From a virus (Duplodnaviria; Heunggongvirae; Uroviricota; Caudoviricetes): DNA of 6,364 nucleotides. The stretch lies in the IMG/VR virus record IMGVR_UViG_2537561713_000009; one strand, given 5' to 3'. The stretch's first letter is position 1; every line of letters begins with the position of its first letter. The notes beneath the pieces are model-generated. The model had not been told where the DNA came from. It ran no database searches and saw only the letters and a list, made by a program, of their open reading frames with translations. The translations under genes and the position numbers were made by a program. Positions 4,303 to 6,147 of the stretch are shown piece by piece.

Positions 4303-5394
4303 ATGCGTGATTACGCAAAAGTTTCTCCGCGATTCTGGCTGGGAGAAACGGGGAGAGAACTTAGAAAGGCGGGTGCAGAAGCGCAAGTTGTTGCTTTTTA
4401 CCTGATGACATCCCCTCACGCAAATATGCTGGGTTTGTATTACCTGCCAGTTTTATACCTTGCTCATGAAACCGGGCTTGGTCTGGAAGGGGCTTCAAAG
4501 GGGCTTAAAAGGGCTGTTGAAGCTGGTTTTTGTAGCTATGACCATGATGCAGAGATGGTCTGGGTCCATGAAATGGCAGCCTGGCAGGTTGGGGAAACGT
4601 TGAAGCCTGGCGATAACCGTTGTGCAGGTGTCAGGAATGAGTATGCATCATTACCTGAAAACGCTTTTCTGTCAGTGTTTTACGACAGATATAAAACGGA
4701 TTTCCATCTGGATGTGAGGCGGAATAATAGCCGAAATTCGGTAAGGGGCTTCGAAGGGGCTTTTAAGGGGCTTCGAAGCCAAGAACAGGAACAGGAGCAG
4801 GAGAAAGAACAGGAACAGGACAAAAACACTATGGTTCATGGCAAAAAAAACACCACGAACCAGGCAGGGGATGTTCAGACCGTCAATCCTGGTCAGCCAG
4901 CAGGCACGACACCGGAAGCCGATTCGGGCGCTGTGCAGCAGGTGATGACCGCAGGGTCGGAGCAATCACACCAACTGCAGCAGCCTGAAGCCGATTCCGC
5001 CATTCAGCGGGAAGCCGATCGGGTAGTCCCGGAAAGCACCGGGCAGTCTGTGGGACGAGTGGATTATCCGGATGTGTTCGAACAGGTCTGGCGGGAATAC
5101 CCGTTGCGTGCTGGGGCAAACCCGAAGAAATCCGCTTTCAGTGCCTGGAAGGCCAGATTGCGCGAGGGGGTGCCACCAGAGACCATGCTGGATGGTGTGA
5201 GGCGTTACGCGAGATACCTGGCGGCGACCGGGAAAGCGGGAACGGAATTTGTTCAGCGAGCGACGACGTTTTTTGGGCCGGACCGGAATTTTGAAAACCC
5301 CTGGTTGCTCCCGGTAAGCGGCACGAACAACCAGCGTTGTGTGAATCATATTTCTGAACCGGATACCGAAATTCCGCCGGGATTCAGGGGGTGA
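4303..5394 (+). CDS. Phage replication initiator / replisome organiser (YdaU-like, DUF1376-type N-terminal domain, disordered linker, conserved C-terminal domain), 363 aa
   Basis: Track ORF 4192..5394 has an N-terminal extension with no SD. The ATG at 4303 has GAGG 5 nt upstream. N-terminal domain (VSPRFWLGETGRELRKAG...YYLPVLYLAHETG), EQ-rich linker, C-terminal motif block (FEQVWREYPLRAGANPKKSAFSAWKARL). Immediately followed by a DnaC-like gene, as for lambda O-P. Confidence 0.8.
   Translation: MRDYAKVSPRFWLGETGRELRKAGAEAQVVAFYLMTSPHANMLGLYYLPVLYLAHETGLGLEGASKGLKRAVEAGFCSYDHDAEMVWVHEMAAWQVGETLKPGDNRCAGVRNEYASLPENAFLSVFYDRYKTDFHLDVRRNNSRNSVRGFEGAFKGLRSQEQEQEQEKEQEQDKNTMVHGKKNTTNQAGDVQTVNPGQPAGTTPEADSGAVQQVMTAGSEQSHQLQQPEADSAIQREADRVVPESTGQSVGRVDYPDVFEQVWREYPLRAGANPKKSAFSAWKARLREGVPPETMLDGVRRYARYLAATGKAGTEFVQRATTFFGPDRNFENPWLLPVSGTNNQRCVNHISEPDTEIPPGFRG
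4487..4515. repeat. Iteron-like direct repeats, cluster 1: three 11-bp-phased copies of AAGGGGCTT (third copy AAGGGCT)
   Basis: AAGGGGCTT at 4487..4495 and 4498..4506, AAGGGCT at 4509..4515, all inside the replication-initiator gene. Confidence 0.6.
4743..4775. repeat. Iteron-like direct repeats, cluster 2: three exact AAGGGGCTT copies at an 11-bp period
   Basis: AAGGGGCTT at 4743..4751, 4754..4762 and 4765..4773, followed by the hexamer repeat and an A-rich tract. Confidence 0.65.
4783..4818. repeat. Hexanucleotide tandem repeat (GAACAG-like, 6 units) encoding an EQEQEQEKEQEQ linker
   Basis: GAACAG GAACAG GAGCAG GAGAAA GAACAG GAACAG, in frame within the initiator gene. Confidence 0.8.
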
Positions 5395-5400
5395 TGTGGC

Positions 5401-6147
5401 ATGAAAAACATTGCGGCAGCCGGGGTTCTTGAACGTATTCGCAGACTTGCACCACAGGCGTCGGTTCCACCGTACCGGACGGTGGAGGAGTGGCGGGAAT
5501 GGCAACTTGCTGAAGGACGAAAACGCAGCGAGGAGATTAACCGCCAGAATCACCAGTTGCGGGTGGAAAAAATCCTGAATCGTTCGGGCATCCAGCCTCT
5601 GCACAGCAAATGCTCGTTTGCGAATTATCAGGTGCAGAACGACGGGCAAAAATACGCGCTGAGCCAGGCCAAATCCATAGCTGACGAACTGATGACCGGG
5701 TGCACGAATTTTGTGTTCAGCGGTAAAACCGGCACCGGGAAAAATCACCTTGCAGCGGCGATGGGTAACCGGCTGATGGCGAAGGGGCGCAGCGTGATTA
5801 TCGTCACCGTGTCTGATGTCATGAGCGTGTTGCATGACAGCTACGACAACGGCAAATCCGGGGAAAAATTTTTACAGGAGCTTTGCAGTGTTGATTTGCT
5901 GGTCCTGGATGAAATAGGCGTTCAGCGGGAGACGAAAAACGAGCAGGTGGTATTACACCAGATAATTGATCGCCGGACAGCATCACTGTGCAGTGTCGGG
6001 ATGTTAACAAACCTGAATCATGCCGCAATGAGTACACTTCTTGGTGAGAGGATTATGGACCGCATGACCATGAACGGTGGTCGATGGGTGACGTTTAACT
6101 GGGATAGCTGGCGTCCAAATGTCAGCAATATGAGGGTTGTGAAGTAA
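5401..6147 (+). CDS. DnaC-like helicase loader (AAA+ ATPase of the DnaC/IstB family; lambda P-position analogue), 248 aa
   Basis: Walker A FSGKTGTGKNHLAAAMG (compare E. coli DnaC GKPGTGKNHLAAAI) and Walker B LLVLDEIG. Starts 7 nt after the initiator stop with GGGGGTGA as SD. Same 248-aa length as Rac YdaV from memory. Confidence 0.9.
   Translation: MKNIAAAGVLERIRRLAPQASVPPYRTVEEWREWQLAEGRKRSEEINRQNHQLRVEKILNRSGIQPLHSKCSFANYQVQNDGQKYALSQAKSIADELMTGCTNFVFSGKTGTGKNHLAAAMGNRLMAKGRSVIIVTVSDVMSVLHDSYDNGKSGEKFLQELCSVDLLVLDEIGVQRETKNEQVVLHQIIDRRTASLCSVGMLTNLNHAAMSTLLGERIMDRMTMNGGRWVTFNWDSWRPNVSNMRVVK

Follow-up and report, generated by a model that had tools for sequence, protein, structure and literature searches.

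A probable iteron-type replication origin embedded in the initiator gene of a Rac-like, DnaC-type prophage

The 6364 bp stretch of DNA analysed here over its full length, hereafter the window (IMG/VR record IMGVR_UViG_2537561713_000009), is 100 % identical to the chromosome of Escherichia coli O157:H7 and is the early region of a lambdoid, Rac-like prophage. It includes the gene for a 363 aa initiator ('replisome organizer'; positions 4303–5394, + strand, RefSeq CDS WP_001205823.1), and the segment 4487–4862 is probably an iteron-type, lambda-class origin of replication of this DnaC-type prophage, lying inside the gene for its own initiator. The segment contains two clusters of a 9 bp repeat which, judging from their conservation in homologous genes, are very probably the binding sites (iterons) of the embedded origin. 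An origin had been proposed in this region in a first-pass annotation of the window.

Repeats in the window

The 9-mer AAGGGGCTT is found in five exact copies, all in the + orientation, at 4487–4495, 4498–4506, 4743–4751, 4754–4762 and 4765–4773, and the rest of the 6364 bases contains no other. By chance, 0.07 copies (sd 0.28) would be expected, none of 200 dinucleotide-preserving shuffles reached five, and Tandem Repeats Finder detected a period of 11 at 4487–4513 and at 4743–4778; the five exact copies with an 11 bp period listed in the first-pass annotation were thus recovered. The copies form two clusters that lie 256 bp apart. Cluster 1 (4487–4506) consists of two copies 11 bp apart and corresponds to codons 62–68 (EGASKGL), and cluster 2 (4743–4773) consists of three copies 11 bp apart in the part of the gene that encodes a disordered linker, where they are read in three different frames (RGF, EGA and KGL). 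The first-pass annotation had located both clusters correctly, with ends (4515 and 4775) that are off by a trivial 2 bases, and had included a degenerate sixth copy in cluster 1. This copy, AAAGGGCTG at 4509–4517, is present and in 11 bp phase with two mismatches, but we consider it doubtful because the codons involved, 69–71, are only weakly conserved in an alignment of 81 homologous genes.

Cluster 2 is followed by an in-phase half-site, AAGCCAAGA (4776–4784), within the junction CGAAGCCAAGA. The DNA of this junction is kept in nearly all homologues, and the third positions of the corresponding codons, 158–160, have identities of 0.96, 0.93 and 0.77. Beyond this lie the two remaining elements noted previously, both of which were found again, namely a GAACAG array at 4783–4820 (period 6, 6.3 copies and 81 % matches in Tandem Repeats Finder) and a run of eight A at 4843–4850.

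Conservation of the sites as DNA

Homologues were collected using the N-terminal 142 residues of the initiator as the query. They comprise annotated phages of Shigella, Klebsiella, Acinetobacter, Ralstonia and Escherichia, 80 viral contigs and 80 species loci, the latter of 33–68 % GC and mostly from beta- and gamma-proteobacteria, with some from alpha-proteobacteria and assorted metagenome bins. Conservation of the 9-mer among homologous initiator genes, which the first-pass annotation had suggested as a check, is borne out, with the 9-mer present at the same gene offsets and with the 11 bp spacing in approximately 61 of 81 genes from hosts of 33–68 % GC. When up to one mismatch was allowed, 451 matches were found in the 407 kb of the 80 species loci, 142 of them at gene offsets 150–200 and 174 at offsets 400–500, and each of the other 50 bp bins held about one match or fewer, summed over the 80 loci. 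The cluster 1 offsets, 184 and 195, alone account for 136 matches on the + strand, and the usual map is 184 (+) and 195 (+) followed by two or three copies at approximately 428–486. Of 175 intervals within clusters, 158 measure 11 bp, 14 measure 12 bp and three measure 10 bp.

In the codon alignment of the 81 genes, third-position identity is 0.96, 0.96 and 0.80 for codons 62–64 and 0.95, 0.84 and 0.89 for codons 66–68, and it falls to 0.62 at the spacer codon 65, the 2 bp spacer remaining variable. Elsewhere the value is approximately 0.35–0.6, even at invariant residues, and frozen third positions, which are confined to the 9-mers, recur at codons 151–159. Within the sites, the codon GGG is used for 94 % of Gly residues, GCT for 81 % of Ala and CTT for 89 % of Leu, compared with 23, 18 and 13 %, respectively, elsewhere in the same genes; the control codons were drawn from these same genes and the tests are not phylogenetically independent. 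The bias holds separately in the 52 high-GC and the 12 low-GC loci.

The site is also kept when its orientation or its coding context changes. In 65 of 82 loci the sites of cluster 2 are inverted (AAGCCCCTT) and encode the peptide EAPSKPL instead of EGASKGL, and the direct form is characteristic of enterobacterial lineages, the window included. In Acinetobacter phages, extra non-coding copies are found at −38 and −27, over the ribosome-binding site of the initiator gene (locus L004:2463–2482), and copies 25–40 bp upstream of the ATG are also present in further loci of Acinetobacter phages and prophages (L098, L100, L109, L112, L114, L126 and L131). The position of these copies over the Shine–Dalgarno sequence suggests autoregulation of the initiator in the Acinetobacter phages. 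Taken together, frozen synonymous positions, the use of three frames, strand flips and non-coding copies show that the 9-mer sites are selected as DNA and not as protein code; hence, the repeats are not purely codon-driven, the condition under which the first-pass annotation would have taken its proposal as refuted.

The initiator and its N-terminal domain

The initiator starts at the ATG at 4303 (MRDYAKV...) and not at the in-frame ATG at 4192; the homologues begin at MRDY. Over residues 1–363 the protein matches PHROG 1701, 'DnaD-like helicase loader' (E = 8.9e-149), though this functional name is annotation only. No Pfam family, PF09681 and Phage_rep_O included, matches the initiator at E ≤ 0.01, the N-terminal domain (N-domain) matches no NCBIfam family, and a PDB sequence search with the family profile returned nothing. 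Homology to lambda O was rejected, as hhalign of the family alignment against lambda O gave a probability of 0.1 % and there is no Phage_rep_O match. An identity as DnaT was likewise rejected. The last 24 residues alone match DnaT, at 17.8 bits against a cut-off of 201, and the C-terminal tail matches PDB DnaT chains with E = 0.02–0.07; because the match is limited to these 24 residues, the name 'Primosomal protein I' carried by homologues is misleading.

An AlphaFold2 model of residues 1–173, based on a 44-sequence alignment, has a mean pLDDT of 84.5, with values >90 for residues 10–140 and below 50 for residues 147–167, which are disordered. The modelled order is helix 25–36, strand 45–47, helix 50–57, helix 60–73, a hairpin (77–80/85–88) and two more helices, and the modelled fold is a winged helix with the canonical order of elements. 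Foldseek matches in BFVD, with E values from 1e-5 to 4e-3, carry the names 'Replisome organizer' and 'Phage replisome organiser N-terminal domain'. The predicted N-terminal winged-helix DNA-binding domain corresponds to 4303–4722 (+ strand, codons 1–140) and travels with the repeats. Cluster 1 encodes the start of helix 3 (residues 60–73), which by its place in the topology would be the recognition helix, as in canonical winged helices, and the peptide EGASKGL encoded by cluster 1 is itself conserved. The first-pass annotation had assigned all of the repeats to the part of the gene encoding the junction and linker between two domains; this is correct for cluster 2, the array and the A-tract (residues 147–186), but cluster 1 lies inside the folded N-domain, in the helix formed by residues 60–73.

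Exchange of modules and the origin of the repeat sequence

The part of the gene from 4823 to 5394 (+) is an exchangeable C-terminal module. Homology begins at query base 632 (window position 4823), and from there on the sequence shares 91–95 % nucleotide identity with initiators of other E. coli phages that have other N-domains. Approximately 1500 complete E. coli genomes share the segment from 4823 and differ in the N-terminal part. Across the family, the N-domain and its sites form a unit that combines with no fewer than 20 unrelated C-terminal modules, which partly follow the downstream partner, DnaB-like or DnaC-like; one module stands next to a DnaB-like helicase in 13 of its 15 occurrences, and DnaC-like loaders adjoin others. 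The DnaC-like loader encoded next in the window is the presumed partner of the C-terminal module there. The IPPGFRG tail of this module is also present in YdaU of Rac, whose gene precedes a near-identical DnaC-like gene, and it weakly resembles the DnaT tail.

The initiator of Tritos, another E. coli phage (L172:1026–2096), includes the C-terminal module of the window from 4823 onward, but its N-domain has no detectable similarity to that of the window (hhalign probability 0.16 %). Its gene contains GTCACG repeats with a spacing of 10–11 bp, four at gene offsets 128–196 and five at 388–434, the two clusters being 260 bp apart, and all nine copies in the 3.6 kb Tritos locus fall within the initiator gene. 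The repeats are followed by a 12 bp array (ACAGATAAAGAT, three copies) encoding TDKD repeats and then by the A-loop palindrome found in the window. As the C-terminal module is the same while the N-domain and the repeats are different, the repeat sequence follows the N-domain and not the host or the C-terminal domain. The lambda-group phages are known for the same logic.

YdaU of the K-12 Rac prophage (DUF1376) was considered as a homologue of the N-domain and rejected, since only the C-terminal IPPGFRG tail is common to both. The K-12 ydaU gene (L170:3620–4477) includes GATGTTCAA-like repeats at gene offsets of approximately 143–230 and 350–440, a looser version of the same layout, and the repeats are possible iterons of Rac oriJ. 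The literature on Rac oriJ, which concerns the YdaU type and not that of the window, gave no description at the level of the sequence.

The array, the A-rich segment and the palindrome

The (GAACAG)n array (+ strand) encodes a (QE)n linker and falls within the 60 bp of the window that have the highest purine content (4775–4834, 80 % purine). Of 82 homologues, 73 have an array, which is 6–34 residues long and takes the form (KE)n in the Legionellales. A role for (GAACAG)n as a sequence-specific DNA site was rejected, as its codon usage equals the background and its length and composition vary. Because there is no synonymous-codon constraint and (KE)n is found in the Legionellales, the array appears to be kept as a charged or purine-rich tract and not as a specific sequence, and it may serve as a charged linker in the protein or as a purine-rich tract in the DNA.

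The A-rich tract to the right, which the first-pass annotation had counted as part of the candidate origin, is a weak part of that proposal. The segment 4813–4852 is only 65 % AT (z = 1.1), the tract belongs to the exchangeable C-terminal module, and we do not endorse it as the unwinding element, as it is only mildly unstable and poorly conserved. The least stable 40 bp stretch of the gene is 4664–4703 (68 % AT, nearest-neighbour dG = −48.9 kcal/mol, z = 1.6), which lies between the two iteron clusters and is a weak candidate for the unwinding region. In 71 aligned loci, AT content exceeds the locus mean by 0.08–0.13 in the interval 50–100 bp upstream of the junction that closes cluster 2.

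The A-rich segment (4821–4862) also includes an imperfect palindrome, TGGTTCATGG...CCACGAACCA, at 4832–4862, with a stem of 12 pairs, G–T counted, and the run of eight A as the loop. Tritos, Shigella phage 75/02 and E. coli DEF10 have retained the palindrome, with some compensatory changes. Across the family, 26 % of loci, compared with 5.8 % of control windows, have a perfect stem of at least 6 bp in the 45 nt that follow the array, and for stems of at least 8 bp the figures are 10 % and 0.5 %. Loci L094, L095, L099, L149, L151 and L157 are among the examples, and close relatives have compensatory pairs in the stem, such as CCTCTCC/GGAGAGG versus CCTCACC/GGTGAGG. By analogy, the hairpin after the array may correspond to the palindrome of the lambda origin, or it may be a priming or loading signal. 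DnaB-partnered lineages have a second hairpin, GTCGGC-NNN-GCCGAC, after the first.

A second initiator-like family with the same site

When viral contigs were scanned for tandem pairs of the site, at least 120 stretches were identified, and 80 of these were examined. The window-type N-domain is encoded in 48 of the 80, and approximately 25 of the remainder encode a second initiator-like family (MAKRFTDTEKWKKPFIRGLQGAYK...), which has 1566 relatives and no Pfam match and is found on contigs of 30–42 % GC. The gene of this family is directly followed by a BT4734-like_N primase/helicase-type gene and an SSB gene. Here, the same 9-mer is found at offsets 36–69 and 327–394, in 11 bp phase and followed by a DKDK or MDMD array, with AAGGGGCTT/AAGCCCCTT clusters approximately 290 bp apart (loci L174–L253; examples are L187:3317–4057, − strand, and L294:4001–4699). 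Single sites flip between GGG and CCC cores (RGLQGAYK versus RGLQAPYK), and we argue from this that the site works in either orientation. Profile comparison found no similarity between the second family and the N-domain of the window (hhalign probability below 1 %), and the AlphaFold model of the second family has a pLDDT of 37. Hence, either the second family is a very old relative or shares a very old recognition module, or the reader of the site is something other than the variable part of the N-domain.

An AT-rich viral contig (L252:2760–3840) includes AAGCCCCTT and AAGGGGCTT approximately 15 times in non-coding DNA, mostly as hairpin arms within a cassette that is duplicated and is situated between small genes. 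This cassette is either a gene-free version of the same origin or a set of unrelated terminator-like repeats.

The phages of alpha-, beta- and gamma-proteobacteria and the second family have a layout in common: 11 bp-phased sites in two clusters approximately 250–300 bp apart, a charged-dipeptide (purine-rich) array and, often, a short hairpin. We propose, tentatively and with the balance somewhat against it, that AAG-SSS-CTT could be an ancient, frozen initiator–origin code common to both families. The freezing may be due to the sites being partly written in the codons of the initiator's own DNA-binding domain, so that site and reader cannot drift independently. If this is true, a single AAG-SSS-CTT motif would predict origins in thousands of uncharacterised phages.

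Proposed mechanism and alternative explanations

In the mechanism that we propose, the N-terminal winged-helix domain would bind the AAGGGGCTT sites, functionally AAG-SSS-CTT, in either orientation, and the 11 bp spacing would place the sites on roughly one face of the helix. With two, or perhaps three, sites in the domain-coding part of the gene and three sites plus the half-site in the linker-coding part, the bound initiator would form a nucleoprotein complex that makes the DNA next to it less stable. The DNA affected would be the interval separating the two clusters or, on the right-hand side, the purine-rich array together with the A-rich palindrome. The C-terminal module would then recruit the phage DnaC-like loader carrying the host DnaB. 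Binding by the N-domain, firing of the origin and the place of unwinding are what we infer.

Several observations weigh against this reading. Locus L164, which is divergent, keeps the cluster 2 sites with a different helix 3 sequence, leaving helix 3 unproven as the reading element, and the presence of the same 9-mer in the sequence-unrelated second family slightly weakens the view that the N-domain alone reads it. With respect to unwinding, the A-rich tract is conserved in the enterobacterial C-terminal module alone and is missing from high-GC relatives, neither 4813–4852 nor 4664–4703 is among the 12 least stable 40 bp stretches of the window, and the excess of AT between the clusters may reflect the encoded amino acids. 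Finally, the prophage in the window is probably Sp4 of the O157 strain Sakai, as inferred from the RefSeq family name ECs1072 of a neighbouring product, and Sp4, which is of the DnaC type, was found to be amplified only by regional replication of the neighbouring prophage Sp5 (PMC2669165). Such passive amplification is in itself neither for nor against the presence of an origin.

The sites could instead serve control, by autorepression, as a roadblock or by handcuffing of copies, with replication starting elsewhere in the phage genome. The Acinetobacter copies that overlap the Shine–Dalgarno region (AAGCCCCTTcgAAGGAG...ATG) have the arrangement typical of autoregulation, and no strong AT-rich element adjoins the repeats, but no other cluster of the motif is present within 2.5 kb on either side in the 80 loci, and the order of sites, array and palindrome, between the DNA-binding and the partner-recruiting modules, mirrors that of the lambda origin. 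We consider it unlikely that control is the whole explanation; as control and origin functions coexist in iteron plasmids, it is more an addition than an alternative. It is decidedly unlikely that the DNA at the junction is simply a recombination 'linker' for the exchange of modules between phages, with no role in replication. Such a linker would fit the mosaic breakpoint at 4823, directly after the array and the point from which the roughly 1500 E. coli genomes match, as well as the 20 or more C-terminal modules joined to one N-domain. However, it leaves unexplained the exact 11 bp phasing, the frozen synonymous sites of cluster 1 deep in the N-domain, the strand flips of single sites, the non-coding copies and the fact that Tritos has other repeats in these two positions, and breakpoints are in any case expected at an origin that marks the border between modules.

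Pairing of the two clusters in mRNA or single-stranded DNA, to give a long-range stem that regulates translation of the initiator, is conceivable where cluster 2 is the reverse complement of cluster 1, as in the 65 inverted loci, which could form a stem of approximately 20 bp closing a loop of approximately 230 nt. In the window and other Enterobacteriaceae both clusters are direct and cannot pair, the 2 nt spacers do not covary (15 complementary versus 12.6 expected, p = 0.19) and no Rfam family matches at the repeats; pairing is very improbable, and we rejected it on the lack of spacer covariation and the direct orientation in the lineage of the window. There is hardly any likelihood that the repeats merely mirror the repeated peptide EGASKGL and codon habits. 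Though that peptide is conserved in cluster 1, synonymous positions are frozen across hosts of 33–68 % GC, cluster 2 uses three reading frames and encodes a segment for which the model predicts disorder, the site persists in the opposite orientation while the peptide becomes EAPSKPL, and there are copies that are not coding at all.

Comparison with known systems

The arrangement in the window resembles that in lambda, where the iterons lie within the initiator gene O (lambda record) and where the N-terminal domain of O is origin-specific and the C-terminal domain specific for the helicase-loading partner. In both, a purine-rich stretch, which in lambda is also AT-rich, and then a palindrome come after the repeats, and the window gene is in an early-right operon, after cro- and cII-like genes and with the loader gene directly next. 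However, the window initiator has no sequence relationship to O, and its sites are 9 bp long with a period of 11 bp, whereas lambda has four 18 bp sites approximately 20–24 bp apart, start to start. The window sites are also in two clusters 256 bp apart, one of them within the codons of the DNA-binding domain, there is no clear AT-rich region, and the loader is DnaC-like and not lambda P.

Through its fold match in BFVD, the N-domain also resembles the replisome-organizer initiators of Gram-positive phages. In SPP1 (G38P, with oriL in gene 38) and in the rep genes of lactococcal and streptococcal phages, a direct-repeat origin lies inside the organizer gene, and the C-terminal part of these organizers hands over to the helicase loader. 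Replication that depends on oriL has been described for SPP1 (PMC5737612). The window initiator differs in having no PF09681 match, and in repeat sequence and host range. It also differs from the iteron plasmids (RepA/pi-type; pPS10, R6K and pSC101) in having one winged helix and an exchangeable C-terminal module, not two winged helices, in its candidate origin being embedded in coding DNA, and in having no Rep_3-type Pfam match.

A further counterpart is the Eru4 type phage, Shigella phage 75/02 Stx, whose initiator is a homologue that shares approximately 70 % amino acid identity over the N-terminal 197 residues of the window initiator, has the same DnaC-like gene next and has the same sites at offsets 184/195 and 439/450. 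The Eru4 type of the Shiga-toxin phages was classified by the gene pair next to cI, no origin was described, and nothing was known about the replication proteins of Eru phages (PMC8951638). The window, for its part, belongs to an O157 prophage that is non-Stx and has another immunity region. The tandem two-copy site sequences were found in no paper of the library searched, and the 189 papers with the bare 9-mer appear unrelated, mostly giving primers or guide sequences.

Prophage context

The initiator gene is followed by a gene for a DnaC-like helicase loader (5401–6147, +; NCBIfam PRK12377, 509 bits; DnaC model E = 3e-89), whose product also matches the Pfam families IstB_IS21 and Bac_DnaA. 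A cro/YdaS-like gene (2881–3153) and a cII/YdaT-like gene (3137–3562) lie further to the left. Between these and the initiator gene, two long open reading frames overlap on opposite strands. That at 3576–4085 (+) matches PHROG 8304 over its full length (E = 4e-120), and that at 3769–4224 (−) is named 'ECs1072 family phage-associated protein' in RefSeq and has no Pfam match; the choice between them bears on whether rightward transcription reaches the candidate origin. Scans of 3500–5500 for promoters and terminators gave counts at or below the shuffle expectation.

The immunity position is occupied by a single operon (1865–2772, −), a toxin–antitoxin-like set made up of a 133 aa helix-turn-helix (HTH) repressor without a peptidase domain (2371–2772, −), a 63 aa RelB-like antitoxin (2152–2343, −) and a 95 aa ParE/RelE-like toxin (1865–2152, −). 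It resembles the paaR-paaA-parE three-component systems of the O157 cryptic prophages. The 15-mer ACAATAAAAAACTGT is present in four copies (0.29 expected) as two inverted pairs, one (2809–2847) in the divergent intergenic region between the repressor and cro-like genes and the other (1774–1813) downstream of the ParE-like gene, and these are probably operator sites of the HTH repressor. The DicF small RNA (141–192, −; Rfam RF00039, full length, 76.9 bits) lies directly after dicB of the same prophage.

Distribution and implications

The initiator module is present in 469 of 5426 complete E. coli genomes, in at least 572 IMG/VR contigs and in 100 of approximately 185 000 species-representative genomes. 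The initiator and its sites are likely to be a new and widespread case of the lambda-like class of origins that are embedded in the initiator gene, and the analysis provides a concrete assignment of an origin and of the initiator domains for a common, uncharacterised replication module, that of Eru4 included. With the 9-mer as a simple marker, origins can be sought by sequence in phages and prophages of this kind. The site does not vary even between very distant hosts, in contrast with the fast-diverging iterons of the lambda group, and the genes represent natural overlapping codes, in which predicted protein-binding sites are kept in coding DNA in three frames and on both strands. Since synonymous mutations that kill the sites are possible, the function of the origin would be separable from that of the protein.

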